Assembly: GCA_026388095.1 (NCBI GenBank)
Contig: JAPLKL010000041.1
Coordinates: 36,016-100,015, forward strand
DNA from: Elusimicrobiota bacterium
Lineage (GTDB): Bacteria; Elusimicrobiota; Elusimicrobia; UBA1565; UBA9628
Direction: 5' to 3'
DNA length: 64,000 bases
Below are positions 6,791 to 36,361 of the stretch, piece by piece (the first letter of the stretch is position 1; every line of letters begins with the position of its first letter). The notes beneath the pieces were generated by a model, which did not search any database, was not told the DNA's origin, and was given only the letters and a program-made list of their open reading frames with translations. The position numbers and the translations under genes were made by a program.

Positions 6791-6831
6791 TTCTTTCCCC
6801 CTTGGTCGTGTGTGTGAGTATATCAAAAAAT

Positions 6832-7953: not shown

Positions 7954-7965
7954 ATCTATGCCGCC

Positions 7966-9906: not shown

Positions 9907-9993
9907 GTCAGATGTCCTCTCGGTTCGTCACGCTAAGGTCCCTCGGGATGTCCGGTCCCGGGCGGGTCCTGCCGCCGGCCACCCGCCCGCAGG

Positions 9994-10371: not shown

Positions 10372-10372
10372 G

Positions 10373-18878: not shown

Positions 18879-18890
18879 GACGGCGCTCCC

Positions 18891-19643: not shown

Positions 19644-19688
19644 GATGTCGTACCGTTGCGGCTCGAAACGCCTCTACGTCAGGTCCGG

Positions 19689-20444: not shown

Positions 20445-20447
20445 AGT

Positions 20448-20983: not shown

Positions 20984-21190
20984 TTAGTTGCCCTGCCCCA
21001 ACGACGTGGCGGCGCCTGAGATCATCTGCTGGATCGAGCTGAACAGACCCGGCATGAACCGCTTGAGCGCCACCCCGGCCACCAGCACGACGCCCACGAC
21101 CACCGTCAGCATCAGCAGATACTCTACGGTGTTCTGACCTTTCCGGCTCTTGAGCCACTTGCGCGCCGCTTCCACTCTCATCGTCATCAT
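20984..21190 (-). CDS. flp: Flp/Fap-family type IVb pilin (prepilin).
   Basis: The sequence MMTMRVEAARKWLKSRKGQNTVEYLLMLTVVVGVVLVAGVAL has a short basic leader, a G/xxxxEY processing motif and a hydrophobic helix. AGGAG lies 10 nt upstream of the ATG at 21190. In-frame ATGs also occur at 21187 and 21181. Confidence 0.75.
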   Translation of the reverse strand: MMTMRVEAARKWLKSRKGQNTVEYLLMLTVVVGVVLVAGVALKRFMPGLFSSIQQMISGAATSLGQGN

Positions 21191-21212: not shown

Positions 21213-21380
21213 TCAGTAATAGGTCGAAAGAATCTTCTTGCCGGCCAGGATGAACAGCAGCTTCAACTGCCCCTGGATGAACCCGTACATGGCCGCGAAG
21301 CACGTCACCAAGACCATCGTGGTCAGGATGTACTCGACCGCAGCCTGTCCTTTCCGCCATCCCGGCATCTTCAGAGCCAT
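21213..21380 (-). CDS. flp: Second Flp-family pilin (55 aa), not in the ORF track because it is under 60 aa.
   Basis: Manual translation gives MALKMPGWRKGQAAVEYILTTMVLVTCFAAMYGFIQGQLKLLFILAGKKILSTYY*. It has the same leader-GQ-xxVEY-hydrophobic-helix architecture as the adjacent pilin. An alternative in-frame ATG at 21389 would give MTYMALK... Confidence 0.6.
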   Translation of the reverse strand: MALKMPGWRKGQAAVEYILTTMVLVTCFAAMYGFIQGQLKLLFILAGKKILSTYY

Positions 21381-21442
21381 GTACGTCATTGAGTGTATCA
21401 GCCACGGTTTTCCTTGTCAATAACCTTTCCATTAAAAATACA

Positions 21443-22417
21443 TTAAAACTTGACCTTAAAGGAGAATTGGTCGACGGTGCCGAGAGCTCCGTAAGGGACG
21501 TAGGCATAGTCCAGGGCGATGCCGTACCCGAAGGCCCGCGAGGTGAACAGCCCGAAACCGAAGGAAAGACCGGCGGTCCGGTCCATGCGCAGGTTCTTGA
21601 GCGTGCCGTCGAAGCTCTGGCCCAGGGTGTCCGCGTTGTAGTACCCCGCCCGGAACGTGACCTGCCCGACGTCGAGATACTGCTCGGGGAGCATGAATTC
21701 CCCGCCCACGCCGAAATGGGCTCCCGAGTCGGAGGCCTCATTGAGCTCCAGGCCGATATTGAAGAAGTCTCCCAGCCGCAGGGCCGCCCCGCCCCGCGTC
21801 GTGGCGGGGACGTTCTCCTTGTTGGTCCCGAAGTTCTGCACCGCGAATCCCAAGGTCAGCACGCTGTTGGGCTTGAGCAGGACGCCGAAATCGCCGACGA
21901 CCGTGTCGTGCACGCGGCTGGCGAGGTCCTCATGGACCAAGCGCACCGCGCCGCCCAGGAACAGCTTCTCGTACCAGAACGACCGCGCCATGCCGATGGA
22001 GCCGAATCCGTCGCGCACATTGATGTTCTCGCCGGTCTGGGGTACGCCGTTGGCGTCGCGCACGTCGAAGCCCGATACGCTCATGTAGGCGATGTTGGCG
22101 CCCCAGACCGTGCGGCCCATGGGATGGGCGTAGCCCAGATAGAGGGGCGAGTCCGTGTCCTGGACGTAGCGCAGGTAGGAGTAGACCAACTCCTTCTGCT
22201 GGGTCAGGGCCAAGCCGGCGGGGTTCCAGGTCAAGGCGTCGGCGCCCTCGGCCAAGGCCACGTAGGCCTTGCCCAGGGCCTGGGCCCGCGCCGAGCCCTG
22301 CTGGAGCTCCATGAACTGGGCGCCGCTGGTGCCGGCTTGATCGGAGATGGCCCAAGCCGCGGCCGGGCCGCCGAGCAGCCAGACGCATGCGAGCAGGGCC
22401 GTTATCCCGAGTCTCAT
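21443..22417 (-). CDS. Outer-membrane beta-barrel protein, PorV/PorQ/FadL-like.
   Basis: The signal peptide is MRLGITALLACVWLLGGPAAAWA. The conserved N-terminal motif GSARAQALGKAYVALAEGADALTWNPAGLA matches the PorV/PorQ/FadL-like barrel family. Alternating hydrophobic β-strands follow, and the C-terminus is an aromatic residue (FSFKVKF). The start abuts the stop of the giant upstream gene. Confidence 0.65.
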   Translation of the reverse strand: MRLGITALLACVWLLGGPAAAWAISDQAGTSGAQFMELQQGSARAQALGKAYVALAEGADALTWNPAGLALTQQKELVYSYLRYVQDTDSPLYLGYAHPMGRTVWGANIAYMSVSGFDVRDANGVPQTGENINVRDGFGSIGMARSFWYEKLFLGGAVRLVHEDLASRVHDTVVGDFGVLLKPNSVLTLGFAVQNFGTNKENVPATTRGGAALRLGDFFNIGLELNEASDSGAHFGVGGEFMLPEQYLDVGQVTFRAGYYNADTLGQSFDGTLKNLRMDRTAGLSFGFGLFTSRAFGYGIALDYAYVPYGALGTVDQFSFKVKF

Positions 22418-25400
22418 CGCACCAGGAATTTCTTCACCGTCTGCAGGATGTTCCTGCTGCCGTCCGTGGCTTCGGCCCGGAATACCGCGTAGTACAACCC
22501 GCGCGCCACCCGGCGGCCGGCGGAGTTGGAGCGGGTCCAGGCGAAGCACGGGACGCCGCCCGCCGTGGAGCCCCCGCTGACGTAGTTATTGGCCTGCTGC
22601 TCCCCGAAGTCCTTGTCCAGGACCAGCTCGCCGCTCATGGTGTAGAGCTTCATCTTGACGTCGGCCTGGAACGGCGAGAAGATGACGATGTTGGCGCTGT
22701 CGCCGTCCACGGGGTTGGGGTAGATGTAGGTGTTTCGCTCGAAATCCCCTTTGGGATCAGCGGACTGGTTGCGCACCACGGCGACCTCGTCGAGCGGCCG
22801 GTCCTCGGCCAGCTCCAGCGGGAAGATCACGTTGCCCGTCATATTGTCGATGGCGCTCATGTCCGTCGAAGCCACGATGCTGAATTTGTAATTCCCGTCG
22901 GGGGTCGCGCCCAGGCGCAGATCGGTGCCGTCCCAGGTCTCGGTGACCTCCGTGCGGCCCGGCCGCACGCCCACGATGCGCTTGACCAATGACACGGCCT
23001 CGGGCGGCGACGGGTTGCCGTTGCCGTCGAAGACGGTCCCTGGGCGGTAGATCTTGACCGACACCTTCATGGTCGCGGAGACCTGGTAGAGGATGCGCGC
23101 CCCCTCCGAGCCGTTGGTCAGCGGCGCGATGGCCACGTCGTAGATGCGCAGCGGGTCGTAGGCGATGGTCATCTGGGCCGTGGAGGGCTGGTTGAGCTGG
23201 GAGGCCACGTCCTGGGCCACGCCGCGCACCAGGTAGAAGCCGGACGGCGGGAAGTTGCCCTTGTCGTCCCGGCCGTCCCAGACGTCCTCCAGCAGCAGGC
23301 CGCCGTCGCGCACTCCCCCCAAGATGACCGAACGCACGACCTGGTTGGGGACGTTGTTGTTGAGGATCTGGATGGTGACCGAGGATTGGCGGGTGAGTGC
23401 GTAGCTGATGGTGAAGGGGTCCAAAGTGATGCTGGAGCTGGAGTTGAACATCTGCGGCACGGTCGGAGTCACGTTGAAGGTGGTGAAGATGATCGCGCCG
23501 CGGCTGACGGTCACGCTCCCGAAGACCCGGTCCGTGGCGTAGTACTGGGGAGTCGTCGTGGACTGCGCGACCAAGGTGAAGACGTAGCTGCCGTCCGGGA
23601 CCAGCAGTCCGTTGGCGTCCCGGCCGTCCCAGTATTCGGTGATGCGCATGCGGCCGGGCCGCATCCCGTGGTAGCTGATGAGGGGCCCGATCTTGCCGCC
23701 TTGGGAGTCCACGGTGTTGTCGCAGACGGTGGTGGACATGCCGCAGGGCGGCCAGGTGGAGGTGCTGTTCTTGATGACCGTGCCCGGGGAGTAGATGTTC
23801 CACACCACGTTCATGGGCTGGGAGAGTTGATAGTTGAGCGAGACCGAATCCGAGGTCCCGGCCATGAGCGGCGTGGTCACCACGTCCGTGATGCGGAACA
23901 GGTCAACCGGGAAAGACGACGACACCGTCGAGACCTTCATGGTGCACAAAGGGTCCGCGGCGGTCAGCTGGACGATGTAAGTGCCCGAAGTGACCCAACG
24001 GCCGGTGTTGTCCACCGCGTCGCCCCATATCTCCTGGTTGGCGAACAAGCCGGGCCGGACCACGTTTTCGGCGAGGGTCCTGACCAAAGTGGTCCCGTCG
24101 GCCTGGAAGATCTTCACGCTCGCGATGGCGTCGCGGCCGAGCTGATACCGGAACACGAAGGGATTGAGGCCGCTGATGGCCGGGCTGGAGCCGATGACGG
24201 TGGGGCTGGCGGCGATCTGGCTGAGGCCCACGTTGCCCCGCACCACCGGCATGAAGCCAGTCTGGGCCTTGGTCGTCCAGATGCGGCGGTCTTGCACGCT
24301 GCTGATGAAGGGGCTCCCGTTCTGCGAGGGCAGGGCGGCGTAGATCACGAAGACGTAGTCGCCGTCCGTGCAGACCGCGTTGCCGTTCATGTCCCGGCCG
24401 TCCCAGAAGGTCAACGCGGAGCCGCGGCCGGCCTTGATCTCCTCGAAATGGCGCACCAGGGGAGCCGGGGACGAGTTCGGGCCGGTGCAGGCGCCTATGT
24501 AGGGTTTGAAGTCCTTGGGTCCGTGCACCCACTCGAACCCGCCGGAGATGACTGGGCCCGCCCGGTCCAGGTTGACCGGGTCATTGACATTGTTGAGGTT
24601 GCCGCAGAACTGGGTGTTAGGAGGATAGATGTCTATATACACCGTCGCCGGCTCGGTGAGGGTGTAGCTCAAAGTCGCCAAAGACGTCGCTGAGCCCGCC
24701 AGAGGCGCGACCCTGAGGTCCGTGATCTGGAGGGGGTCCAAGCTGATCTGCCGCGTGGTCGGGTAGGACAGGTCGCCCCCGTACTGGTCAACGGCGAAGG
24801 CCTGCAAGGTCGCCAGGAACACCCCGGGGGGCAGGAGATCCCCGTTGTCTGCGCGGCCGTTCCAGGCATCGCCGTTGAGCAAGGTCCCGTTGGGCGTGCC
24901 CTCGCCCACGCGCGCCACGCCCGGCAGCACGGAGCGCAGCACCGCGCCGCTGTCCGGGTCGGTGACGGTGATGTACATCGAGGCGTCCTTGGAGAGCCGG
25001 TAAGTGATGTTGTAGGGCTCCACGTAGACCCCGGCGCTGCCCACCACCGTGGGAGAGGAGCGCACCACGTGCACGTTGGTGACGTCCACCTGCACGGGCT
25101 TCTGCAGGACGAAGAGCGCGTTGGCATCCATGGTGGCTCCCGCCGGATAGGCGCGCTGGGCCGTGATGGTGATGTTGCCGCTGGAGCCGGTCTGGTTGGT
25201 CTGGGCCGTGATGCGGAATCCGTACTGTCCGTTGGTCTTGCCCAACTCGCCCTGGATGCTGACTGCGCCGTCCCAGAGCACGCAGTAGGGTTTCACACCG
25301 CTCGTGGTGGAGTTGGTGTAGGGAGCCAGGACCCCGGGGGCGTCCACGAAGAAGGTGCGGATCGGCGGGGTGGAGCCCGCATCCAGGGGGTTGGCCCCGT

Positions 25401-25911
25401 CCTGGAACTTGAAAATCTCGAACTCCACCATGTCCAGGGCCACGGTGTCGGAGCCCGGGTTGTTGTAGCCGATCCCGGCGCAGAGGAAGACGTCGGAGTT
25501 GCAGATGTTGTTGCCGTTGACTGCGTCGCCGGCAGGGGAGTTGGCGGCGTCGCAGTTGGACAGCACCGTGGAGCTGCGCTGGTCGAACTCGATGTGGGGG
25601 TCGTTGGAGATGTTGCCATTCTGCGGCTGCAATCCCGAGACATCAGTGGGCGAAGTCGGGTTGATGTCCCCGCAATAAGTGGTGCCGCCCAGTTGGCAGT
25701 TGGACGAGCCGTCCAGACAGAAGAAGTGCTTCGTGAACGCATTATAATAGCAGTAGAAGCCGCTGTCCTTGACCACGAAGGACTGATCGATGAAGAGCTG
25801 GACCTGGCCCTGAGCGAAGAGGCGGGAGGGCAGGAGGAGGGACAGGAGGGCGGCGCCGTAGAAAGCCTGCGCCGCCCCCATGCCGCTTCGATGTCGGTTC
25901 ATAGAACGCAT
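22414..25911 (-). CDS. Giant secreted protein (~1165 aa) with six FlgD-Ig-like repeats and a T9SS-type (Por_Secre_tail-like) C-terminal sorting domain.
   Basis: The signal peptide is MRSMNRHRSGMGAAQAFYGAALLSLLLPSRLFAQG, followed by a Cys-rich N-terminal region. Six repeats carry the W(D/N)GRDxxGxxxPxGxYxF motif (TFWDGRDMNGNAVCTDGDYVFVIY, EYWDGRDANGLLVPDGSYVFTLVA, DVWDGRDDKGNFPPSGFYLVRGVA, ETWDGTDLRLGATPDGNYKFSIVA and others). The C-terminal ~90 aa (YIYPNPVDGDSANIVIF...VKMKLYTMSGELV...RGLYYAVFRAE...KKFLVR) match the T9SS sorting-domain consensus. The ATG at 25911 is chosen; a GTG lies at 25914. Confidence 0.8.
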   Translation of the reverse strand: MRSMNRHRSGMGAAQAFYGAALLSLLLPSRLFAQGQVQLFIDQSFVVKDSGFYCYYNAFTKHFFCLDGSSNCQLGGTTYCGDINPTSPTDVSGLQPQNGNISNDPHIEFDQRSSTVLSNCDAANSPAGDAVNGNNICNSDVFLCAGIGYNNPGSDTVALDMVEFEIFKFQDGANPLDAGSTPPIRTFFVDAPGVLAPYTNSTTSGVKPYCVLWDGAVSIQGELGKTNGQYGFRITAQTNQTGSSGNITITAQRAYPAGATMDANALFVLQKPVQVDVTNVHVVRSSPTVVGSAGVYVEPYNITYRLSKDASMYITVTDPDSGAVLRSVLPGVARVGEGTPNGTLLNGDAWNGRADNGDLLPPGVFLATLQAFAVDQYGGDLSYPTTRQISLDPLQITDLRVAPLAGSATSLATLSYTLTEPATVYIDIYPPNTQFCGNLNNVNDPVNLDRAGPVISGGFEWVHGPKDFKPYIGACTGPNSSPAPLVRHFEEIKAGRGSALTFWDGRDMNGNAVCTDGDYVFVIYAALPSQNGSPFISSVQDRRIWTTKAQTGFMPVVRGNVGLSQIAASPTVIGSSPAISGLNPFVFRYQLGRDAIASVKIFQADGTTLVRTLAENVVRPGLFANQEIWGDAVDNTGRWVTSGTYIVQLTAADPLCTMKVSTVSSSFPVDLFRITDVVTTPLMAGTSDSVSLNYQLSQPMNVVWNIYSPGTVIKNSTSTWPPCGMSTTVCDNTVDSQGGKIGPLISYHGMRPGRMRITEYWDGRDANGLLVPDGSYVFTLVAQSTTTPQYYATDRVFGSVTVSRGAIIFTTFNVTPTVPQMFNSSSSITLDPFTISYALTRQSSVTIQILNNNVPNQVVRSVILGGVRDGGLLLEDVWDGRDDKGNFPPSGFYLVRGVAQDVASQLNQPSTAQMTIAYDPLRIYDVAIAPLTNGSEGARILYQVSATMKVSVKIYRPGTVFDGNGNPSPPEAVSLVKRIVGVRPGRTEVTETWDGTDLRLGATPDGNYKFSIVASTDMSAIDNMTGNVIFPLELAEDRPLDEVAVVRNQSADPKGDFERNTYIYPNPVDGDSANIVIFSPFQADVKMKLYTMSGELVLDKDFGEQQANNYVSGGSTAGGVPCFAWTRSNSAGRRVARGLYYAVFRAEATDGSRNILQTVKKFLVR

Positions 25912-25965
25912 CACCCTAGCAGTGCCAAAATAGCCTAAATCTGTTTCCGGAGTATTACCGGCATG

Positions 25966-27975
25966 TTAAAAAATTGTGAAGAGGCGCCAGCCGACTCGGT
26001 AGCGCGCCAGCGCGAAGCCCTGCCGCCGCGCCGACGGCCCCGCGAGCACCAGGATATCCTCGGTCTTCGACCCGGCCCCTGCCCCGTCAGCCTGGGCCGC
26101 CGTCAAGCCGACGACGTTCTCATCCAACGCGACGGCCCAGGCCGGCGCGAAGGCTTCGTTGGCGAGGTCGAACGCCATGAGCCGCCGGCTGCGGGAATCC
26201 CAGAGCCAGAGGCGGCCCCCCAGCCACTGCATGGCGGCGGGCAGGACGTCGGCTTCCAGCGGATAGGCCTTGGCGTCGGTCTCCTCGGCTCCGTGCCGGT
26301 AGAGGCGCTTGTTGAAGGCGTCGTAGGACCACAGGGCCTGGCCGTCCCAGGCGAGCGCCGTGGGCGCGGGCCCGGGCGCCGGCTTGGCGTAGAGCACGGT
26401 CCCGGGGTCATCCGGCTGGTGGCGGACGATGCGGGCCTGGGCGGCGTCCAAGGTGTAGAACCGCTCTCCGCCCAAGGCCAGGGCCACGGGTCGGTAGGCG
26501 CCGATGCCTGAGACGCTCGCGCTGCTCACGGGCGCCCGGAGGTCCGCAGGGTCGAAAGCCTCCAGGGTCCCCTTCCAATCCGACACCCACAGGCGCTTCC
26601 CGTCGGACGCCAGCGCGGTCGGGTGGTCCAGAGCCAGGCCGCGGGTGGTCAGCGGCTTGAGGCTCCATGCGCTCAGCCAGCGTCCCAGAGGCCACGCCGC
26701 GGCCAGGAGCAGGCCCGCCGCGACCGCCGCCGGCCCGAGCCAGCGCCGCCGCGGCGCGGCGGCGCGCAAGGGCGCGCCGTCCCCGGAGGGCTGGCGTTCT
26801 CCGTTCCCGGAGGGGGCCGGGAGCTTGCGCTCCAGCTCGGCGACGCGTTCCATCACCGCGGCCAGCTTCTGGGAAGCGGCCGAAGCCTCGGGCAGGCTGC
26901 GCGCAAGCTGCTCCGCGGGCTTGACCGGGGCTTGGTCTTTGGCCGAAACCTCGGCGCGCGAGGCCTCGCGCTCCTTGCGCAGGCCCTCTTCCCAGGCCGA
27001 CCGTTCCTGGCGCAGGCTCTCATCCCGGGCGGCGAGCTCGAGGCGCCGGGCCTCCCAGGCCTCGCGCTCCTTGCGCAGGTTCTCCTCCCACGCGGCGAGC
27101 TCGAGGCGCCGGGCCTCCCAGGCCTCGCGCTCCTTGCGCAGGTTCTCCTCCCAGGAGGAGAGCTCGAGGCGCCGGGTCTCCCGGGCCGAGCGCTCCTGGT
27201 CCCAGAGCTCGCGCCACTGCCCGCGCTCCTTCTCCCAGACGCGGGAGAGATCCTCGCAGCGCCCTTCCACCTCCGCGATCCTCTTGACCGCCTGGGATTG
27301 CTCGCCTTCGGACTCCTGATGCGCGTGCCGCTCGCGCAGGAGCTCGGCCAGCGTCTTCTCCAGGGCCGCTTGGGTCTGCTCGAGGCCCGTCGAGAGGCGC
27401 GCCGCCGCGTCCTCGGCCCGCTGGGAATCCTCCTGGCGGCGGGCGGCCGCAGCCTGGAGCTCCTGCAGGTCCAGCAGATACTGCTGCTCTTTCTTCTCCC
27501 AGCGCCGCTGCTCCTCTCGCCAGCGGGCGCCTTCGGCTCCGGCCGATTCGCGCGCGGCGTCGACCAGGGCCTTGAGGTCCCGGCGCTCGGCCTCGTGCGC
27601 GGCGCGCTCGTCGGCGAGGGCCTTCTGCGCGGCCTCCAAGCGGGAGCCCACGTCGAGGACCTCGGCGACCACGAGCTCGTCGTCGGCGCGCACCTTCTGG
27701 CGCAGGGAACCCAGCTCGGTCTCCAGCAAGGCTTGGCGTTCCTTCAGGGCGCGCAGCGCCTTTTCCCGGGCCTCCAGGAGCTCGTGCCAGCGGGCTTCCT
27801 GGCGGCGGTACTGGCTCTTGAGCATGGCCACCGTCTCCCAGGCCACTTCGTTGGCCGTGGCCACGGATGCGGCAGGCGTCGGCGCGGGGTCGGCCGGGGC
27901 GGCGGAGGCCGCGCCGACCTTCTCCCAGAGCCGGCTGATCTCCTTGTGCAGGTCGTCCGGAGAGGCTTTTTCCAC
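25966..27975 (-). CDS. Bitopic membrane protein with a long cytoplasmic coiled coil (tandem 21-aa repeats) and a periplasmic beta-propeller-like C-terminal domain.
   Basis: The start is a GTG (MEKASPDDLHK...). The first ~400 aa are charged coiled coil with the repeated unit RRLELAAWEENLRKEREAWEA. A single TM (LGPAAVAAGLLLAAAWPLGRWL) follows. The C-terminal ~200 aa have W-rich repeat motifs (LWVSDW, LWSYDAFNKRLYRH, RLWLWDSRSRRLMAFDL). Confidence 0.65.
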   Translation of the reverse strand: MEKASPDDLHKEISRLWEKVGAASAAPADPAPTPAASVATANEVAWETVAMLKSQYRRQEARWHELLEAREKALRALKERQALLETELGSLRQKVRADDELVVAEVLDVGSRLEAAQKALADERAAHEAERRDLKALVDAARESAGAEGARWREEQRRWEKKEQQYLLDLQELQAAAARRQEDSQRAEDAAARLSTGLEQTQAALEKTLAELLRERHAHQESEGEQSQAVKRIAEVEGRCEDLSRVWEKERGQWRELWDQERSARETRRLELSSWEENLRKEREAWEARRLELAAWEENLRKEREAWEARRLELAARDESLRQERSAWEEGLRKEREASRAEVSAKDQAPVKPAEQLARSLPEASAASQKLAAVMERVAELERKLPAPSGNGERQPSGDGAPLRAAAPRRRWLGPAAVAAGLLLAAAWPLGRWLSAWSLKPLTTRGLALDHPTALASDGKRLWVSDWKGTLEAFDPADLRAPVSSASVSGIGAYRPVALALGGERFYTLDAAQARIVRHQPDDPGTVLYAKPAPGPAPTALAWDGQALWSYDAFNKRLYRHGAEETDAKAYPLEADVLPAAMQWLGGRLWLWDSRSRRLMAFDLANEAFAPAWAVALDENVVGLTAAQADGAGAGSKTEDILVLAGPSARRQGFALARYRVGWRLFTIF
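27034..27222. repeat. In-frame 63-bp tandem repeat array inside the coiled-coil gene: two perfect copies at 27034-27096 and 27097-27159, with degenerate flanking copies.
   Basis: The unit GAGCTCGAGGCGCCGGGCCTCCCAGGCCTCGCGCTCCTTGCGCAGGTTCTCCTCCCACGCGGC repeats exactly twice. Diverged copies lie at about 26971-27033 and 27160-27222. The array encodes the 21-aa unit of the coiled coil. Confidence 0.85.
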
Positions 27976-28069: not shown

Positions 28070-30004
28070 ATGATATCATGGCCGCTGATGGACCGCGAAG
28101 AATCCTCCCCCTGGAGTTGTCTCATCGCGGCCGCCCTCCTGGCCCAGATGCTCTGGCTCGGGGCCAACACGGCCTACGATCCGGACACTTGGTGGCACCT
28201 CAAGACCGGGCAGCTGGTCTTCCAGACCCATTCCATCCCCACGCGCGACCCCTACTCCTACGTCCTGGCGGGCCGGCCCTGGACCACCTTCGAGTGGCTC
28301 TTCCAGGTCGTCATCTACCTCGCCTACGCCGGGGCCGGCGCGGCCGGCGTGGCCGCGCTGCGCGTGGGCCTGCTGGCCGGAGCATTCCTGCTCCTCCTGC
28401 GCTTGGCGGGCGGCGGGTTCTGGGCCGGCATCCTGACTTCTTTGGCCGCGCTGGCGGCCAGGGATTTCTTCGTGACCAGACCGCAGGTCTTCGACTACCT
28501 CCTGCTCGTATTCTATCTCTCGGTGGTCGACCGCTGCCGCGGCCGGCCGGGCCGCCTGGCCTGGCTGCTGCCCGGCCTGCAGGTCCTCTGGGTCAACCTC
28601 CACGGAGGGGCGGCGCTTCTGGGAGTGGGGTTAGTGGGACTCAGAGCGGCGGTCGCCGCCCTGCCGGGACAGAGGCAAGACAGAGCCCTGGGGCCCTGGC
28701 TGACCCTGACCGGAGCCTGCCTGGCAGCCATGCTCGTCAATCCCCACGGGCCCGGGATATTCACCCATGCCTACGCGACCCTCTTCTTCCCCGGCCAGGA
28801 GCTGATCAACGAATGGCGGCCGGTGGCCTCTCTGCTGAGTTGGCAGGGGGCGTGCCTCGCCGTGGGGGCCGTGGCCGCGGTCTGGTCCTGGGAGTCCGAA
28901 CCGCACCTGGCTCTGACCGCTTTGGTCCTGGGCGTCATGGGCTGCCTCCAGGTGCGGCATGTGTCTTTGGCCATGCTGGCCGCGGCGCCCCTGGCCGCCC
29001 GGCTGCTCGCGCGCCTGCGGCCCGTGCCCATCGGCCGACGCTCGGCCCTGGGCGCCGTCGTGGTGATGGCCGCCTGGTCGGCCCTCTTCATCCATCAGCG
29101 CGTCGGGTACCTGGAGAACGTCGGCGCGGGCCTGGAGGAGCTGCCGGACCGGGCCATCCGGTATCTCGACGACAACGACGTCTCGGGCCGGATGTTCCAC
29201 ACCTACAACATGGGCGGGTATCTCATCTGGAAGACCTGGCCGCGCCGGCAGGTCTTCGTGGACGGCCGCAACGTGGAGTATGGCCCGGACTTCATCGCGC
29301 AGGCTCTGAACTGGACTCGCCCGGAGGTCTGGCCGCGGCTCGACGCCCAGTGGCGGTTCGACTACGCCGTCATCGGGAACTCCCCGGGCTACGTGGCTGA
29401 GGTCCTGGACGACTCGCCGCAATGGGCCCTGGTCTTCTGGGACGACGCGGCCCTGGTGTACCTGAGGCGCACGCCGGCCAACGCCGCCCTCATCCGGCGC
29501 GACGCCTACCGCCTGCTCAAGCCCAACCAACTCACCTTCGCCTATCTCGCCGAGGACCTGCGCGACCGCCGCAAGGCCGCGGCCGTGCTGGCCGAACTCG
29601 ACCGCTCCGTGCGATCTTCGGACCGCAACGTGGACGCCTGCCAGATGCGGGCCTACGTCCTCTCCGAGCTGGGCCGCCCCGCGGACGCCGTCCGGGACCT
29701 GCAGGGCGTCATCCGACGCTTCCCGCGCAAGCCCGGCCCGTACATGTCTCTGGGCTGGTTCCATGAGCGGGCGGGACGTCTTTTGGCGGCGCGGCAGGTC
29801 TACGAGGAAGGGGTGCGCATGGCGAAGTGGAACTCGGACCGGACCTCGCGGGCCTTTCTGGAGAATAACCTCGGATCCATCGAGCTGCGGCTCGGCAACC
29901 GCGAACGCGCCCGCGAGCTGTTCGAGGACTGCTTGGCGCTGGAGCCCAGCCATCCCCAGGCTCGGCGCAACCTCCAGATCTTGGATCAGTCCGCTAAGAA
30001 GTAG
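28070..30004 (+). CDS. Polytopic GT-C-type membrane protein (glycosyltransferase-like) with C-terminal TPR repeats.
   Basis: About 10 predicted TM helices span the first ~330 aa. A periplasmic domain follows (YNMGGYLIWKTWPRRQVFVDGRNVEYGPDF). The C-terminus carries TPR repeats (DACQMRAYVLSELGRPADAVRDLQ..., LENNLGSIELRLGNRERARELFEDCLALEPSHP). Confidence 0.65.
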   Translation: MISWPLMDREESSPWSCLIAAALLAQMLWLGANTAYDPDTWWHLKTGQLVFQTHSIPTRDPYSYVLAGRPWTTFEWLFQVVIYLAYAGAGAAGVAALRVGLLAGAFLLLLRLAGGGFWAGILTSLAALAARDFFVTRPQVFDYLLLVFYLSVVDRCRGRPGRLAWLLPGLQVLWVNLHGGAALLGVGLVGLRAAVAALPGQRQDRALGPWLTLTGACLAAMLVNPHGPGIFTHAYATLFFPGQELINEWRPVASLLSWQGACLAVGAVAAVWSWESEPHLALTALVLGVMGCLQVRHVSLAMLAAAPLAARLLARLRPVPIGRRSALGAVVVMAAWSALFIHQRVGYLENVGAGLEELPDRAIRYLDDNDVSGRMFHTYNMGGYLIWKTWPRRQVFVDGRNVEYGPDFIAQALNWTRPEVWPRLDAQWRFDYAVIGNSPGYVAEVLDDSPQWALVFWDDAALVYLRRTPANAALIRRDAYRLLKPNQLTFAYLAEDLRDRRKAAAVLAELDRSVRSSDRNVDACQMRAYVLSELGRPADAVRDLQGVIRRFPRKPGPYMSLGWFHERAGRLLAARQVYEEGVRMAKWNSDRTSRAFLENNLGSIELRLGNRERARELFEDCLALEPSHPQARRNLQILDQSAKK

Positions 30005-31564
30005 TCAGGGCGCAGGCTCGACCTGGAGACGGTAGTCCTCGGGGTCCAATGCCGCGGCTGTGACATAGTCCCTTTGCGCGCCGGGGTCGCGGCGGGCGTC
30101 GCGCAGCGTCCCGTCGAGGTAATGGGCGAAGGCGTAGCTGAGCAGGATGTCGCGCACGTAGCTCTCCTCCCGTTGCAAGGCCTGGCCGCGCCTGAGCGCG
30201 GAGAATTCCCAGGCCGGGCCTTGGGGCTCGGCGCTCTGGACCAAGCCGGCCGGGTGCAGGCTCTCCTGGCTCATGCCCATGGCCGCCAGGTTGGCCAGAG
30301 AGAGTCCCAGGACGAAGCGCGGCCGGACGCCCGGTTGCGCGTCCTTGTAGAAGACCAGCCTGCGGCCTTGGCCGTCCGGATGCGCCAGGTCGAGGTAGCG
30401 CGAGGCGTAGAGGGCTGTGTCGCCTCCGACCACGGCCGTGCTGCCCGGAGGCAGGGCCCGGCGCAGGTCCTTGGCGTAGTCGTAGGCCGAGAAGTCGTCG
30501 CGGTGGCAGCAGTCGGCCGCGTTCTGCCACAACGAGCCGGCCACGGCGGCCGCGCCCAGCAGCAACCCGGCCGCCTGCTTGCGCCGCATGAGCCACGCCA
30601 GGCCGAAGCCCGAGCAGAGGCAGACCACGACCGCGGGCGCGACCAGGGCCGATTCCATGACGGTGCGCGCCACCCAGCCGCTGAGGTCGAAGCGTGTGGC
30701 CAGGAAGAAGGCCGGGCCGAAGCCCAGGAAGACGAGGAGCAGGCCGGCCGCGAAGCGCCGGCTGATGCGCCAGGCCTGCCAGGCTCCCAGCGCGGCCAGG
30801 CCCAGGACCACGGGGGACATGCCCTGCCAAAGGGCTTTGCAGAAATATCCCAGCAGGCTCGCTGCCAGGGGCAGGCTGAGGGGGCGGCTCAAGCCCGCGG
30901 AGAGCTGGAAGGTCCCGTATTCCTGCCTCGTGAACATGGCCCAGGCGCGGCCCAGGCTGCCCAGGTTCGCCCACAGGAACAGATACGGGGAGAGGCCCAG
31001 CAGGAAGAGCGGCAGGCAGGCCTTGACCAGGAACCGGCGGTTATCAGCGGCGGAAAGTTCCCCCCACCACAGCACGGCCAGGCCGGGCACGGCAAGGACG
31101 AAGGCCTGGTGGTTGGCCAGACCCAGACCGAGGAGCAAGGCGCTTGCGGCCAGGCGCCGCCACCTGGTCGCATCCTCCTGCCCGGGCCCCGGGGCCAGGA
31201 GCAGCAGGAGCGCGAGGCACAAGCCATGCAGAGAGTACATCTCGCAGAGCAGGCTGAACTTCCACAAGGGGGCGCTGAAGGCCAGGGCCAAGGCCGCGGC
31301 CAGGGCGGGCAGGAGGCCGCAGGACCGGGACAGGAGCAGGAACACGGTCGTGGCGCAGCCGGCCCCGGCAGCGGCGGACATGAGGTTGAGCCTGTAGGCC
31401 GGGTCGCCCCAGGGCATAAGGAAGAGCCACGCCTTGCCCAGCAGGACGTAGAGCGGATAGCCGGGAGGATGCGCGGGCATGAAGGCCAGCACCGCGCTGG
31501 CCAGGTCGCCGCTGTCGCGGGGCGCGACGGTGGGATAGGCCGTGTACGCGTAAGTCGCGAACAC
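30005..31564 (-). CDS. DUF2723/TMEM260-like membrane protein (putative protein O-mannosyltransferase-like GT-C enzyme).
   Basis: The N-terminal signature AYPTVAPRDSGDL...AHPPGYPLY is characteristic of DUF2723, and multiple TM helices follow. The track start at 31564 is a GTG. The upstream in-frame sequence (TTAALVFLGVF) looks like a TM segment, so the true start may be an upstream non-ATG codon. Confidence 0.65.
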   Translation of the reverse strand: MFATYAYTAYPTVAPRDSGDLASAVLAFMPAHPPGYPLYVLLGKAWLFLMPWGDPAYRLNLMSAAAGAGCATTVFLLLSRSCGLLPALAAALALAFSAPLWKFSLLCEMYSLHGLCLALLLLLAPGPGQEDATRWRRLAASALLLGLGLANHQAFVLAVPGLAVLWWGELSAADNRRFLVKACLPLFLLGLSPYLFLWANLGSLGRAWAMFTRQEYGTFQLSAGLSRPLSLPLAASLLGYFCKALWQGMSPVVLGLAALGAWQAWRISRRFAAGLLLVFLGFGPAFFLATRFDLSGWVARTVMESALVAPAVVVCLCSGFGLAWLMRRKQAAGLLLGAAAVAGSLWQNAADCCHRDDFSAYDYAKDLRRALPPGSTAVVGGDTALYASRYLDLAHPDGQGRRLVFYKDAQPGVRPRFVLGLSLANLAAMGMSQESLHPAGLVQSAEPQGPAWEFSALRRGQALQREESYVRDILLSYAFAHYLDGTLRDARRDPGAQRDYVTAAALDPEDYRLQVEPAP

Positions 31565-31912
31565 GCCCAGGAAGACCAGCGCCGCCGTCGTCCGGTTAGT
31601 CGTATGAGGAATAACCCCTCTTCACGTTTGCCGGCCCCGAGGGGGCCGGCAAACGGTATGATACAACACACGGAGCCGGGAAAACCGCCGATGCGGCAGC
31701 TTGGAAGCGCGTCTAGGCAGCGCCTGCCCTATGCCGGCTTATCGTGGCCAGGGGGATTGCCCGGCCGGTCGGGCCCGGGACGGGCACGGCGCGGGCCTCC
31801 AGGCCTAGCAAGAGCAACGACAGGACCAGCGCGCCGCGGCAGCTTCGTGTTCTCATGGCGCTCTCCAGGGACGCAGTTCCGGCTATGATATCATAGGCGG
31901 AGAGGTGGGAGA

Positions 31913-34006
31913 TTGAAGGCCGGCGCCTGCAGACTGATCCTCCTGACCGCGGTCTTGGCCGTGGGCGCCGTCGTCCGTCTCGGCGCCGCGGAAGGCGACC
32001 GCCTGATCCCGCTGGGCGAGATCCCGCCGAGCGGAGGGCCGGGCCTGAGCGAGCACGAGCCGGGCCCGGAGGAGCTCAAGGCCCGCGACCAAAGGCTCGA
32101 CGCCTTCGCCCGAATCCTGCGCGCGGCGGTCCAGGTCGCGCACCGCGAGGCGGGGCGTCGCTACGTCGACATCGCGGAACTGCTCCTCGACCCTGCGCCG
32201 CGGGCCGGCCAGGAGTTGGCCACGATCGGTCTGGCCGCTTTCCCCTATTACGGCGGCGATCTGAGCCTGGGTCATGACCTGTCCGGCGCGATCTCGCTGC
32301 CGGTGCTCGTCTCCGAGATGCCGCCCGCGCAGCGCGCCCGGATCGCTGACCTGAGGCGCCGCCAGAACCCGCCGCCCGACGATATCATGCCGTCGGTGTC
32401 CCATCCGCCGCATGTCCTCTCCGTTCGCGGCCGGCTGGCCGGCGACGCCCAGAGCGGGTACCACCTCCAGGCGACCGGATTCCGCGATCTCGGCGCCGTG
32501 CCCCCGAACGGGCACCACTGCCTGAGCGACCTGGTCCTCGGCAGCAAGGCCATGTACCCGGACGACCTCCTGTCCATGCGCGAGAAGCTCCTAAGCGCCC
32601 TGGACGAGCTGAAGAGAGCGGGGACCCATGCGTTCGTGCCGTTCGCAGACCTTATGCTCGACAGCGAGCGCTACCTCGGGCGGGACGTGGCGACCTTCGG
32701 CGCGCCGCAAGGCGTGGAGGCCAATGCCCAGAATTCCTATTTCAGCCTGCGCGACAGCCTCGGCTATCGGTACAGCCTGAAGGTCGTGATGTCGGGCCTG
32801 CCATTGCAGGAGCGCGCCCTGGTGCTGCGATCGGGGTGGTCCAGTCTGCTGATGGTCCAGGGCCGTTTCGCCCGGACGCCGGACGGCGTCTACTATCTCT
32901 CGGCATCCAGCTGCGCCGGCATGGGCGACTCCGACTACCGGAGCTCGACCGAGATCCTGGCGCCGGAGTTGGAGCCCTTGGTGCCTTTCGACGGCAGCAT
33001 CAGAGGCTTCCGGCGCAAGGCCTCGCGGTCCGTGGTGCCCGAGTCCGAGCTCCGCGCCCGGCTCGACGAGTTCGCCGAGAGCCTGCGCGCCTCGGTCGAG
33101 AGCATCAAGAACGACCCGGCGCACGTCTTCGCCGAAGTGGGCGACATCGGTTTCGATCCGCGCGCCTACATGGACCGGCGCCTGGCCGTCCTGGGCGCCC
33201 CCACGGAGGTGGCAGCCCTGGACCCGCGAGCCAATCTCAAGCTGGGCAGCCACGTCATGGGCGGGCTGCGCCTCCCGGTCTCGATCGCGAGGTTCCCGCC
33301 GGAGATGCGCAAGGGGGTCCTGAGAGCCGAAGATCGCCATGTGCTGGTCATCCGAGGCTATCTGCGGCGCAGCGAGGATGGGAGGCATTTCCTCGACGCC
33401 ACGGGCTACGCGGATCTGGGAGGCCCCCCCGCCGGCCTGCTGAAGAAACTGTCGGTGGCGGACCTCATGCGGGGGAGCGCGGCGTTGGTCCTCCCGACCC
33501 TGTCCGCCGCGCGCCAGAAGGTGGCCGAGGCCAAGGTGGAGCTGGAACGGGACCAGGCGCGTCCTTTCGTCGACCTCCTCCGCCTGGCGCAGGAGCCGGC
33601 GGCGCATCTCGACCGCGACGTGGCCACGATCGGCGTCCCCGGGCAGGTCGTGGCCAACACGCGCGGCGCCTACGCCGATGCCTGGTCGACCTTGGATCCG
33701 GACTATGAGAAAACCCTCATCCTCTGCATCTCCCCTCTGCCGCTGCAGGACAAGAAGGAGCTCCTGCGCCTGGCGTCGCCGTGGCACGCGCTCGTGCTCA
33801 GGGGCAAGGTCCGGGCCATGGAGAAAGGGCACTGCCTGGAGCTGACGGGCTATGAGGACATCGGTCCCTTCCCTCGGGTCGTGACGCCTACGGGGAGCCC
33901 CTTCATGCCATGGAAGTCCACGGCCGCATGCCCTCCGGGGAAGACCGCGATCCTCTGCAACTGGCCGTTCCTCGGCGACATGTACTGCGCCGAGCCGAAG
34001 CGCTAG
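31913..34006 (+). CDS. Secreted protein built from four ~150-aa repeats of an uncharacterised domain.
   Basis: The signal peptide is MKAGACRLILLTAVLAVGAVVRLGAAEG. Four repeats share the pattern ...(F/Y)VD(I/L)...L(D/G)RDVAT(F/I)G(A/V)PxxV...LV(L/I)RGxxxRxxDGxxYL(S/D)ATGYxDxGxxP. No known domain was recognised. Confidence 0.6.
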   Translation: MKAGACRLILLTAVLAVGAVVRLGAAEGDRLIPLGEIPPSGGPGLSEHEPGPEELKARDQRLDAFARILRAAVQVAHREAGRRYVDIAELLLDPAPRAGQELATIGLAAFPYYGGDLSLGHDLSGAISLPVLVSEMPPAQRARIADLRRRQNPPPDDIMPSVSHPPHVLSVRGRLAGDAQSGYHLQATGFRDLGAVPPNGHHCLSDLVLGSKAMYPDDLLSMREKLLSALDELKRAGTHAFVPFADLMLDSERYLGRDVATFGAPQGVEANAQNSYFSLRDSLGYRYSLKVVMSGLPLQERALVLRSGWSSLLMVQGRFARTPDGVYYLSASSCAGMGDSDYRSSTEILAPELEPLVPFDGSIRGFRRKASRSVVPESELRARLDEFAESLRASVESIKNDPAHVFAEVGDIGFDPRAYMDRRLAVLGAPTEVAALDPRANLKLGSHVMGGLRLPVSIARFPPEMRKGVLRAEDRHVLVIRGYLRRSEDGRHFLDATGYADLGGPPAGLLKKLSVADLMRGSAALVLPTLSAARQKVAEAKVELERDQARPFVDLLRLAQEPAAHLDRDVATIGVPGQVVANTRGAYADAWSTLDPDYEKTLILCISPLPLQDKKELLRLASPWHALVLRGKVRAMEKGHCLELTGYEDIGPFPRVVTPTGSPFMPWKSTAACPPGKTAILCNWPFLGDMYCAEPKR

Positions 34007-34588
34007 CTAGCGGCTGGAGCAGCAGCTCCAGGATGCCGGAGCATTGCCCATGTCGTCGGGACCCTGGACCGAGACCAGGACGGCCTGGTGCGCCGTCCAG
34101 GTGCGCTTACCGCCCGTCCCGAAGTCCTTGGCCAGGCCGGCCGGCAGGCTTCCCATCCTGGCGCCGCCGCCCAGCCTGCGTCCCCAGTCCGTCCGGTCCC
34201 CGCAGACCTGGCAGCCGCCCGGCGCCATGACGAGCGCAAGGGCGTCCCGCGGGACATCGTTGAACTCAACGGCCGGGACCTCCCGCGACGGAGCCGGCGC
34301 GAGGGGGACCTCTGTTGCGGCCTGCGCCGAAGGCGCAGGTGCCGAAGGCTCAGGTGCGGACGGCCGGGCTGCGGCGGCCGGACGCGCGACCGGGACTGGG
34401 GGCGTCGGCGGCCGGCCGGGTCCGATCCTGAAGGCCACGGCCAGGGCCAAGGCTCCGGCGACGACGATGATGGCCGGCCCCAGCCATCTCCGAACTGAGC
34501 CGGCGTCCGGCTCCCGCCGTATGGGCGCCAGCATCGGCTGCGGGGATGGACGGGACTCCTGGGGGTCGGTTCGCGGGTCAGAGGACAT
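34007..34588 (-). CDS. Small membrane-anchored protein with a Pro/Ala-rich linker and a Cys-containing C-terminal domain; hypothetical.
   Basis: There is an N-terminal TM (LGPAIIVVAGALALAVAF), a proline-rich linker, and a C-terminal CQVCGDRTDWG...CCSS segment. It is convergent with the preceding gene and their stops abut. Coding status is moderately uncertain in this GC-rich DNA. Confidence 0.4.
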   Translation of the reverse strand: MSSDPRTDPQESRPSPQPMLAPIRREPDAGSVRRWLGPAIIVVAGALALAVAFRIGPGRPPTPPVPVARPAAAARPSAPEPSAPAPSAQAATEVPLAPAPSREVPAVEFNDVPRDALALVMAPGGCQVCGDRTDWGRRLGGGARMGSLPAGLAKDFGTGGKRTWTAHQAVLVSVQGPDDMGNAPASWSCCSSR

Positions 34589-34777
34589 TGCGGTAGGGCC
34601 TATGCCGGCCTTGTCTGTGATATTATAGCCGACAGTCGGCTATGAGCGGAGCCCTCTTTACCCTGCTTTCGTCCATAATTCGTATATTTTTTTTCTGTCG
34701 GCAATGGGTCCATACCACCTTCTTGGTAGCATATCACTAGAGCCGGGCCCGGAGAGCCGTATGAGCCCAGAACCGCG

Positions 34778-36361
34778 ATGGGAACAGAGCCGATGCCAAC
34801 GACGACGACCTTGAATCAGGTCGACCCTGGCCCTGACGATCGGGTCCCCCTCGGACCTCGCCGCCTCATGCTCGCGCTGGTCCTGGCCGCCGGAGCCCTC
34901 GCCTGGGGCCTGATGATCCTGCATCGCGGCTACACCTATGATGAGGTCCTGCGGACCCACTCGGTCTGGATGACGTCGCAAGGCCTGCGGCCGTACCACG
35001 ACTTCTTCGAGTGCCATCCGCCCTACTTCGCGCTTCTGGCCCCGCTGGCGCGGGGCCTCAAGGACCCCGCCGCGCTGCTCGTCGCGCTGAGGCTGGTCGC
35101 GCTGGCGGGAAATCTCCTGTTCCTCGCCGGCCTCGCGGCCGCGCTGGCCGGGCCCCCGGGGGTGCTCGCCGCGATCCTGGGGACGGCGCTGGTCGCCTTC
35201 CACCCCGCGGTGCTCGCATTCCTCGCAGAGTTCCGGATCGACGGATGGGGGTACGCGCTGGCCATCTGGAGCATCGTGTGGTTCCTGCGTTCGCGCCGAT
35301 CCTGGCGTGGCGCGGGGCTCGGCGCCGGGACCGGGATCGCGACCCTATTTCTCTGCCCAAAGGTCGCGCTGCTGCCGCCGCTGGTCCTCGCGTTCGAACG
35401 ACTCCGGGCGCGCAGCTCCTGGAGAGACGCGCTATGGGCTGGCGCGACGTACGGAATCGGCATCGCCGCCGCCGGAGGGCTCTTTTGGGTCTGGCTGGCG
35501 GCGAACAGGCTCGGCGCCGGCCAGGTCTTCGCCCTTCTCGTAAGCTACAACTCGCTGAGCAACTTCCATTCGTCCTACGGCCACGGGCTGTGGCGGGAGA
35601 TAGGGGGGTGGCCGACGCTGGGCGTGCCGATCCTGGCCGCCGCCGCGGCCGGCGCGGTCAGCTGCATCCGCGCCAGGACGCTGCCCGCCGCCTATCCGGC
35701 GGCTCTGGCTCTTTGGCTCGCCGCGCAAGCCGCGCTGGTCTCCTTCCCCCACGCGCAGTACTACGGGCCATGGTTCCTCTTCGCCTCGGGCCTCTTCCCC
35801 TTCCTCTATCCTTGGCTGAAGACCTTCCCGGGACGCGCGGCAGCCAGGATGTTCTTCGGGGTGTGCGCTCTGTCGGTAGCGGTGTCCCTCGTCAACGCGC
35901 CCTGGATGGACTCGCGTGAGTCTCGGGATGACGGGGCCATCCGCCGGACCATCAACGAGGTCACGGACCCAGACGACTATATCGTGGCGATGCCGCCATT
36001 CCATCCCATCGACCGCCGTGACACGTTCTTTGCATGGTTCGACACTTTCGACCCGGCCGGGCACGAGACCGAGGAGATCCTGCAAGGGCTGCCGCTGGTC
36101 CGCGGCCTGGTGTCCGAGCAACGGTACCGTGATGAACTGCAGGCGCATCCTCCCGCGCTCGTCGTCCTTTGGTCCGACTCCGCAGGCCGCAAGTATCCTC
36201 GCCGCCAGCAAGCGTTGCTCGAGCAGTTCCTTCAGGAACGCAGATATGTCGTCTTCGAGATCGGCGACGTGCCGGTCGCGGTGCGTCCGGACCGTTTCGA
36301 GCGCTTAGCCCGCCTGCGCCCGCAACTGCTGTATTTGGGCAATTTCCGGCCCCGCGGTTAG
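34778..36361 (+). CDS. GT-C-family membrane glycosyltransferase-like protein (ArnT/PMT-like N-terminal motif).
   Basis: The N-terminal loop motif YTYDEVLRTHSVWMTSQGLRPYHDFFECHPPYFALLAPL resembles the catalytic loop 1 of GT39/GT83 enzymes (DE/YDE...HPP). About 10 TMs follow, and the C-terminus is a soluble domain. It is a paralog of the 56561-58120 gene. Confidence 0.6.
   Translation: MGTEPMPTTTTLNQVDPGPDDRVPLGPRRLMLALVLAAGALAWGLMILHRGYTYDEVLRTHSVWMTSQGLRPYHDFFECHPPYFALLAPLARGLKDPAALLVALRLVALAGNLLFLAGLAAALAGPPGVLAAILGTALVAFHPAVLAFLAEFRIDGWGYALAIWSIVWFLRSRRSWRGAGLGAGTGIATLFLCPKVALLPPLVLAFERLRARSSWRDALWAGATYGIGIAAAGGLFWVWLAANRLGAGQVFALLVSYNSLSNFHSSYGHGLWREIGGWPTLGVPILAAAAAGAVSCIRARTLPAAYPAALALWLAAQAALVSFPHAQYYGPWFLFASGLFPFLYPWLKTFPGRAAARMFFGVCALSVAVSLVNAPWMDSRESRDDGAIRRTINEVTDPDDYIVAMPPFHPIDRRDTFFAWFDTFDPAGHETEEILQGLPLVRGLVSEQRYRDELQAHPPALVVLWSDSAGRKYPRRQQALLEQFLQERRYVVFEIGDVPVAVRPDRFERLARLRPQLLYLGNFRPRG

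Follow-up and report, generated by a model that had tools for sequence, protein, structure and literature searches.

Does a group of large polytopic glycosyltransferase genes lying close together in a bacterial genome amount to a protein O-glycosylation system, and if so, which proteins would be modified? The question is raised by a 64-kb stretch of DNA from an Elusimicrobiota bacterium (contig JAPLKL010000041.1; the whole stretch is referred to as the window), for which an original prediction, made from the letters and their open reading frames (ORFs) alone, had described five membrane glycosyltransferases of the C fold class (GT-C) as a cluster of paralogs pointing to an O-mannosylation-like system. 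The five genes, labeled A to E here, are the following:

28070-30004, forward strand: A, 644 aa; GT-C-fold membrane domain, then a periplasmic alpha/beta domain, then a tail of tetratricopeptide repeats (TPRs) at about residues 485-640
30005-31564, reverse strand: B, 519 aa; TMEM260-like (DUF2723) GT-C protein with no TPR tail detected
34778-36361, forward strand: C, 527 aa; GT-C fold, DE in the first loop, HPPYF motif, C-terminal soluble domain
56561-58120, forward strand: D, 519 aa; PMT_2-family GT-C protein with DE (D31/E32) in the first loop; first gene of an operon
58120-59721, forward strand: E, 533 aa; TMTC-like, probable GT-C protein ending in a TPR tail; start codon overlapping the D stop (ATGA)

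The explanation that we consider best is that these genes encode five separate periplasm-facing GT-C enzymes of five families, with A glycosylating the surface module to which it is linked, and not one pathway; we would give this explanation about an even chance of being right.

All five ORFs are real genes. The GC content of the window is 62-74%, genuine genes are distinguished by a GC content at third codon positions (GC3) of 0.8-0.98, and A to E show coding-type GC3 values of 0.84-0.91. Four of them are GT-C-type and the fifth probably is, because B and D have matches in Pfam or the Protein Data Bank (PDB), structural models of A and C match GT-C enzymes in Foldseek searches, and E shows the corresponding motifs and topology. 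One or more acidic residues are present in the first extracytoplasmic loop of all five proteins (A, D39; B, D17; C, D55/E56; D, D31/E32; E, D31/D32), and these are the residues that would act in catalysis if each enzyme, as we propose, transfers a polyprenyl-phosphate-linked sugar to an acceptor on the periplasmic side of the inner membrane. For A, C, and E, searches with the membrane part gave no match in Pfam (E<=10), NCBIfam, or PDB sequences, profile searches included; for D as well, PDB sequence and profile searches with the membrane domain found nothing. None of the homologues of A, C, and E carries a Pfam annotation on the membrane domain.

The designation as paralogs turned out to be too strong. 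Pairwise BLAST among the five revealed similarity confined to the TPR tails of A and E, and aligning the membrane-domain family profiles against each other with hhalign gave nothing significant: C against D reached E 0.0058 and 6% probability, though the motif DE...PY.D.F..PP was aligned, while for the A and E profiles the TPR tails aligned and nothing else. Since the membrane domains have no detectable mutual similarity, A to E are not close or recent paralogs and represent five different families. Nor are they one cluster or one operon, as they occupy at least 4 separate transcription units with differing evolutionary histories. A and B run toward each other and their stop codons abut (TAG/TCA, 30002-30007), C and the neighboring gene for a secreted protein, R, lie on the strand opposite to B, and the only overlapping pair is D/E, whose second gene starts at 58120 instead of the originally assigned 58121. 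The interval of about 20 kb between C and D holds housekeeping genes (tsaD, an S41 protease, an M23 peptidase, glycogen synthase, scpB, trpS, a pair of PIN and ribbon-helix-helix (RHH) genes, the CCA enzyme, and others), and C and R are not present at this position in two relatives that keep B beside tsaD (L007 and L008; L numbers denote loci). As for the individual families, the original prediction was right about the PMT/ArnT-like DE-loop enzyme (D), the DUF2723/TMEM260-like protein (B), and the TPR tails of two proteins (A and E), but of the latter two, both taken to be TMTC-like, only E is, A not being so by sequence, and the DUF1736 model expected for such proteins has no match in E.

A is the protein for which the most specific role can be proposed. 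Its membrane domain belongs to a family without a Pfam model. The AlphaFold model of A, based on a 48-sequence alignment, has a predicted local distance difference test score (pLDDT) of 93.8 and a predicted TM-score (pTM) of 0.91. Among solved structures, Foldseek placed AftA (8if8, E 4e-5) first and also returned STT3, PglB, and DPY19, and after them TPR proteins matching the tail; the GT-C matches had a probability of 1.00 and TM-scores of 0.40-0.43 across the full length. The tail is also recognized by Pfam TPR models. D39, H43, D60, R137, P138, W174, N176, and H178 are conserved, with D39 kept in at least 90% of the sequences. When A was compared with the TMTC proteins, we found DPD in place of DD, a DxDTWWH motif, no Pfam match, and no profile similarity to the family of E.

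The gene for A is divergent from that for p669, behind which lies a set of genes for surface structures:

25966-27975, reverse strand: p669; cytoplasmic coiled coil, one transmembrane (TM) segment, periplasmic domain
22414-25914, reverse strand: FlgD-Ig giant protein; secreted, 1166 aa, six FlgD-Ig-like repeats, C-terminal sorting domain of the type IX secretion system (T9SS) type; candidate acceptor
21443-22414, reverse strand: outer-membrane beta-barrel-like protein of about 324 aa; signal peptide, C-terminal F
20984-21190 and 21213-21389, reverse strand: two Flp prepilins of 68 and 58 aa; G/xxxVEY motifs, Class_IIIsignal and Flp1_like matches for the first
12819-20915, reverse strand: Tad machinery according to Pfam; TadE, RcpC, secretin, TadZ-TadA fusion, TadB, TadC, and a TadD-like TPR protein

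The giant protein matches FlgD_ig with an E-value of 9.5e-21 and the sorting-domain model TIGR04183 with 28.4 bits (cut-off 23), so that both the Ig-repeat giant protein and the pilins named in the original prediction are present. The barrel protein is paralogous to a 448-aa barrel that relatives encode between A and B, and the paralogs match Toluene_X weakly. The T9SS-type sorting domain together with the adjoining barrel makes an odd pairing for a Tad pilus operon, here in an Elusimicrobia genome. At 16587-18878 (reverse strand), the TadZ and TadA parts appear fused into a protein of 763 aa (CbiA/ParA-like N-terminal part, T2SSE ATPase C-terminal part), which has 761-762 aa in relatives. The TadD-like candidate at 12819-14171 (reverse strand; 450 aa, signal peptide, about six TPR-like repeats), whose ATG overlaps the stop codon of TadC, was recovered by frame analysis; with this gene present, the idea that A stands in for a missing TadD was dropped.

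The set of A, p669, the FlgD-Ig protein, the barrel, Flp, and the Tad genes also occurs together in L002, L007, L008, and L010 (A identities of 69%, 66%, 80%, and 47%, the 80% being that of L008 and the 47% that of L007), and homologues of p669 adjoin A in these four loci as well as in L083. Linkage in the four loci alone is weak evidence, because housekeeping synteny (tsaD, ctp, M23, and uvrB) is conserved there too. In L083, which has no B, identity to the window is 41% for A and 67-71% for the Tad proteins, and the genes follow each other on one strand in the order p669, A, FlgD-Ig, barrel, Flp, TadE, RcpC, secretin, TadZ/A, TadB. Since A lies here within the operon and on the same strand, its linkage to the module has outlived rearrangement or inversion. 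The contig of L083 (JACQAH010000047.1) is labeled 'Proteobacteria bacterium' yet shares this unusual module, and the taxonomic label may be wrong. We propose that A is part of a conserved module with p669, the FlgD-Ig giant protein, the outer-membrane barrel, the Flp pilins, and the Tad machinery; the earlier suggestion of the adjacent surface proteins as possible substrates thus gains a true genomic linkage, seen in all five loci.

Beyond this module, genome and metagenome scans yielded 70 A-family loci in 46 clusters at <50% identity, about 32 of which have at least 4 kb of context. The family ranges over Elusimicrobia, Omnitrophota, Planctomycetota, Gemmatimonadota, Thermodesulfobacteriota, Bacteroidia, Verrucomicrobia, and several Patescibacteria (Peregrinibacteria, Kaiserbacteria, Doudnabacteria, and Saccharibacteria). 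Genes of type IV filaments lie within about 6 kb of the A-family gene in approximately 10 of the roughly 32 clusters; for a random gene, 2-3% would be expected, a rough figure that was estimated from typical gene counts, with no computed control. This association emerged only with wider windows and dedicated profiles. Two of the loci are canonical type IVa pilus (T4aP) clusters, one with the order PilB-PilT-PilC-PilS(6TM_PilS)-PilR(sigma-54)-A-PilA-PilA (L024, 263-10993) and the other with PilS-PilR-A-PilA (L020, 42-5458). In L018, the order secretin-PilB-PilC-pilin is followed by one reverse gene and then A, in L069 three T2SSE genes and a T2SSF gene precede A, and L052 has a T2SSE gene near A. 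Furthermore, a secretin gene precedes the A-family gene on the same strand in Planctomycetota; such a secretin gene upstream of A was found in L038, L078, L079, L040, and L042, directly adjacent except in L042.

A second recurrent neighbor bears on the sugar donor. A small soluble glycosyltransferase of family 2 (GT2) is encoded beside or near the A-family gene in 6-8 clusters, directly adjacent in L014, L036, L039, L063, and L073 and nearby in L016, L020, and L061. The GT2 protein of L014 has its best match in the dolichyl-phosphate-mannose (Dol-P-Man) synthase of Pyrococcus (5mlz, E 4.8e-31), ahead of ArnC and GtrB. The operon of L014 consists of a TMEM260-like gene with TPRs, an A-like gene, the GT2 gene, and a second TMEM260-like gene, and E-like (TMTC-like) genes adjoin A-like genes in L007, L034, L016, and L061. 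A GT2 gene also overlaps the C-family gene by 4 bp in Tundrisphaera. In being coupled directly to small GT2 genes, the relatives of A and C resemble the two-step systems GtrB-GtrC, ArnC-ArnT, and Ppm1-Pmt, and this coupling supports polyprenyl-phosphate-hexose donors for both families. Unlike in those systems, no such GT2 gene is present among the annotated genes of the window, which would place the donor gene at another site in the genome.

The closest functional precedent for A is TfpW, the pilin D-arabinofuranosyltransferase of Pseudomonas aeruginosa group IV, a 646-aa GT-C protein with 11 TM segments and a periplasmic TPR domain that is encoded beside pilA and arabinosylates pilin (bioRxiv 10.1101/2020.04.19.049825). 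A is alike in size (644 aa), in its cytoplasmic N-terminus, about 11 TM segments, and acidic loop-1 motif, and in its periplasmic C-terminal TPRs; thus, the combination of a GT-C domain with periplasmic TPRs is present in both. So is the position in a pilin or pilus locus, as A itself belongs to the Tad/Flp module and its relatives in L020 and L024 directly precede pilA. The two differ in the motif, which is DDx in TfpW and DxD(T)WWH in A; the likeness seen is one of architecture and locus. Moreover, no genes for the D-Araf donor lie near A, whose relatives have the Dol-P-Man-synthase-like GT2 instead, and A is associated with a Tad/Flp pilus and a giant Ig-repeat protein, TfpW with a T4aP. 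Given that A is linked to pilus genes and has a TPR tail and that TfpW sets a precedent, a protein of the pilus module is the likeliest acceptor of A. By this analogy, protein O-glycosylation is plausible, with A as the best case: A would O-glycosylate a module protein, either a pilin or the Ig-repeat protein, and its TPR tail would hold the client, as in TfpW.

A bolder proposal, which we put forward tentatively and consider somewhat short of probable, is that the A family represents an undescribed, widespread class of GT-C enzymes dedicated to type IV filaments. Its members would use polyprenyl-phosphate-hexose made by Dpm1-like GT2 enzymes for the periplasmic O-glycosylation of pilins and pilus adhesins, would have been built into a composite Tad pilus and Ig-repeat adhesin module in Elusimicrobia, and would sometimes act alongside TMTC- or TMEM260-like enzymes. 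On this proposal, bacteria would possess enzymes of the O-mannosylation type with specific clients, parallel to the TMTC and TMEM260 pathways of animals. To our knowledge, Patescibacteria have neither an outer membrane nor lipopolysaccharide (LPS), and the presence of the A family in them argues against lipid A as its general acceptor.

B, convergent with A, is the clearest member of a known family. It matches the TMEM260-like model PF11028 with an E-value of 1.3e-21 and 77.6 bits (cut-off 24.2), and its only significant match among solved structures is human TMEM260, the O-mannosyltransferase of IPT-domain proteins (PDB 9rql; E 2.7e-22), over residues 3-392. In this alignment of about 390 residues, the DSGD of B is aligned to the DSGE of TMEM260, a segment that contains the catalytically important Asp52 (PMC10214176), and D17 of B stands opposite that residue. 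B differs from TMEM260 in length (519 versus 707 aa), in its bacterial origin, in having no match to TPR families at E<=10, in an annotated start that cuts the first TM segment, and in its company: in relatives, it is transcribed with the envelope housekeeping genes tsaD, a ctpA-type protease gene, and an M23 peptidase gene, and it directly adjoins tsaD in L008 and L007, with an 8-bp overlap in L007. A TMEM260-like form with TPRs does occur in L014, unlike B.

The start of B needs correction. The GTG at 31564, the first canonical start, leaves only half of the first TM segment, while relatives start about 16 residues earlier (e.g., MKRALPWLLFLGVFALY in L010). In the stretch of the window just upstream, ATG, GTG, and TTG are all missing, and the candidates are an in-frame ATT at 31612 and a CTG. 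The ATT would restore the TM segment and is probably the true start; this region suggests either a non-canonical start or a gene damaged at its N-terminus. Between A and B, relatives encode the FadL-like 448-aa outer-membrane barrel, which is missing in the window; given the abutting stop codons of A and B here, a precise loss of the barrel gene seems to have happened.

D and E form a genuine operon, since their pairing persists with changed flanks: the 4-bp overlap is preserved in the syntenic L005 as well as in L045, both flanks of which differ. D matches PMT_2 (PF13231) with an E-value of 1.6e-16 and 61.4 bits (cut-off 26.1) over residues 56-210. E has 11 hydrophobic segments, a first loop of 56 residues, and a loop of 45 residues between TM7 and TM8 according to hydropathy, followed by C-terminal TPR matches. 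Invariant in its family are D31-D32, Y62-x-P64, H133-P-x-x-x-E138, K190, and D341-R342-x-x-Y345, and E itself has Y62-Q-P64 and R146-x-D148. These features correspond to the motifs M1, M2, M3, M4 (K only), and M7 and to the topology of the TMTC proteins (motif set, PMC7801869), so that E is, judging from its sequence, probably GT-C-type.

Compared with TMTC1-4 (GT105), the cadherin O-mannosyltransferases, E is alike in its 11 segments and C-terminal TPR domain, the long TM7-TM8 loop, the DD in the first extracytoplasmic loop, Y(Q/R)P, RxD, the K of KExxT, and (D/E)RxxY. It is unlike them in having no Pfam match to DUF1736 or PMT_2 and no DW motif that could be found, in the replacement of the Glu of KExxT by Ala, in having only 3-4 TPRs, and in its coupling to a PMT_2 gene; PxxP is ambiguous in E. 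DUF1736 was likewise not matched by 14 relatives of E, and one distant relative gave a weak, sub-threshold match (5.7e-4). The family is large, with about 2000 scored relatives, and the Joint Genome Institute (JGI) names several homologues (40-44% identical) 'protein O-mannosyl-transferase'. Full-length prokaryotic TMTC homologues have been noted before but not studied (PMC7801869). The closest relatives of both B and E are protein O-mannosyltransferases, and D and E probably have a shared client or work in a complex.

C differs from these in that its family has no Pfam model and its homologues carry no Pfam domain. The family is found in Elusimicrobia and Planctomycetota, with D55, E56, H80-F84, and K195 invariant. 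The AlphaFold model of C has a pLDDT of 88.3, and Foldseek returned ALG12, ArnT (5ezm, TM-score 0.58), STT3, AftB, and Pmt4, with TM-scores ranging from 0.51 to 0.58. A C homologue of 67% identity (L004) lies in a neighborhood unrelated to that of the window. Upstream of C lies the following gene:

31913-34006, forward strand: R; secreted protein of 697 aa with a signal peptide, four repeats (about 150 aa each) that diverge from one another, and a C-terminal tail rich in Cys

R, which is likewise coding-like in GC3, is the secreted repeat protein that had been noticed between the GT-C genes. Its repeats stand out in segment-wise alignment (z 11-20 versus shuffles), whereas self-BLAST showed none. 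R has no match in Pfam or NCBIfam, and its family is rare, with 22 representatives at E<=1e-3 among 1.84 billion. In the 770-bp gap between R and C (34007-34777) lies an uncertain ORF on the reverse strand (34007-34588; 193 aa, Pro/Ala-rich, one TM segment, GC3 0.84); gene prediction on an independent contig (L001) called it as well.

Several observations weigh against a protein-glycosylating role of these enzymes and of A in particular. Among its annotated genes, the window has none for a polyprenyl-phosphate-sugar synthase. Most A-family loci with context show no pilus genes, a Pfam census of two genes on either side of the A-family genes revealed no dominant family, and many members outside Elusimicrobia have no TPR tail (approximately 66-70% query coverage). 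Within Elusimicrobia, where housekeeping synteny is kept as well, the linkage of A may be partly passive. No glycan density was reported for the Tad pilus of C. crescentus (PMC10710030). C and D have no TPR tails, and the lipid A transferase ArnT is the second-best fold match of C and the one with the top TM-score. The membrane profile of E found no match in PDB and Pfam, its GT-C status depending on motifs and topology. Finally, bacterial members of the A, C, E, and TMEM260-like families are all uncharacterized, so that protein acceptors are proposed for them by analogy; published work refers to the bacterial relatives of TMTC and TMEM260 solely as 'distant homologs' that are uncharacterized (PMC10214176, PMC7801869).

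The strongest rival explanation, which we regard as unlikely but deserving of serious weight, is that some or all of the enzymes, especially C and D, modify lipids or glycans, such as lipid A, the LPS core (as ArnT does), or a surface polysaccharide (as AftA, Emb, and GtrC do). PMT_2, the family of D, shares a clan with ArnT (PMC7801869), D scores above the PMT_2 threshold, the model of C superposes on ArnT, and C and D share with the ArnT/PMT_2 clan (GT83/GT39) the DE pair in the first loop and the C-terminal soluble domain, so that an ArnT-like lipid or glycan acceptor is possible for both. Furthermore, the solved structure that the model of A matches best is that of AftA, which primes arabinan, and the GT2-C pair of Tundrisphaera follows a methyltransferase gene, an order typical of glycan decoration. 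Unlike the genes of the ArnT group, however, C and D have no arn operon context: no arn genes were seen near them or their homologues, C matches no sequence model, and neither has a PDB sequence match to ArnT, leaving fold similarity only. The same holds more widely: neither in the window nor in relatives did we see arn genes or genes for LPS, O-antigen, or peptidoglycan synthesis next to any of the five, and such a conserved neighborhood is what the original prediction had named as speaking against protein glycosylation. The TPR tails of A and E, which are of a protein-binding type, the occurrence of the A family in Patescibacteria, presumed to have neither outer membrane nor LPS, and the match of B to a protein O-mannosyltransferase as its sole significant one among solved structures likewise argue against lipid or glycan acceptors. 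The reading of the locus as O-mannosylation-like stands in part: it is supported by the TMEM260 match of B, the TMTC motifs of E, and the GT2 coupling in relatives of A and C, but not as one system and not with a donor synthase gene in the window.

We consider it improbable that there is no functional relationship at all, i.e., that five unrelated envelope enzymes lie by chance in one 64-kb window of a genome rich in them and that the link of A to the Tad genes is inherited synteny. Such a chance arrangement would agree with the mutually undetectable similarity of the membrane domains, the separation of two gene groups by 20 kb of housekeeping genes, the unrelated neighborhood of a C homologue at 67% identity, the conserved synteny of tsaD, ctp, M23, and uvrB, and the sheer size of the E family. 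Against it, the A module persists through the inversion that put A inside the operon of L083, the D-E pairing stays constant while its flanks change, and independent lineages place the A family in pilus clusters and beside TMEM260-like, TMTC-like, and GT2 genes. Equally doubtful is a main role of A in pilus or secretin assembly, as a membrane-anchored TPR pilotin like TadD or PilF whose GT-C-like domain is an anchor and not a catalyst: while its tail has weak PilW-type TPR similarity (TIGR02521, 5.4e-7, far under the cut-off), one homologue is called 'TadD' by JGI, and A follows a same-strand secretin gene in Planctomycetota, the Tad locus has its own secreted TadD-like TPR protein, the polar and acidic membrane residues D39, H43, D60, R137, N176, and H178 are conserved across phyla, Dol-P-Man-synthase-like GT2 genes recurrently adjoin the A family, and many of its members are wholly without a TPR tail.

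Three further features of the window were recorded. A dense block of two-component genes (6119-11173, reverse strand; Cache/HAMP kinase, hybrid kinase, and LuxR-, OmpR-, and single-domain receivers) lies upstream of the Tad locus and may regulate it. Within this block, the genes at 6832-9906 are matched by neighbors of A-family genes and were first read as pilus components; they proved to be two-component kinases and regulators, the matching neighbors being resolved as PilS/PilR in L020 and L024. A second, weak TadE-like gene is located at 3222-3698 (reverse strand), and the PIN-domain toxin and RHH antitoxin pair (47649-48307, reverse strand) lies between trpS and the CCA-adding enzyme gene.

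Returning to the explanation of five separate enzymes, with A serving its surface module, one genome here holds TMEM260-like, TMTC-like, and PMT_2 proteins together with two unannotated GT-C families, and the conserved linkage of A names concrete candidate clients: the Flp pilins, p669, and the FlgD-Ig surface protein with its six repeats. TMTC and TMEM260 of animals are O-mannosyltransferases with specific clients and have links to disease, and pili are thought to be important for the attached, episymbiotic lifestyle of Patescibacteria. If the proposal is true, glycosylation of pilins and adhesins by enzymes combining a GT-C domain with TPRs would extend from a few Pseudomonas strains to many uncultured phyla, including Patescibacteria, and a function would be assigned to two protein families that now have no Pfam model.

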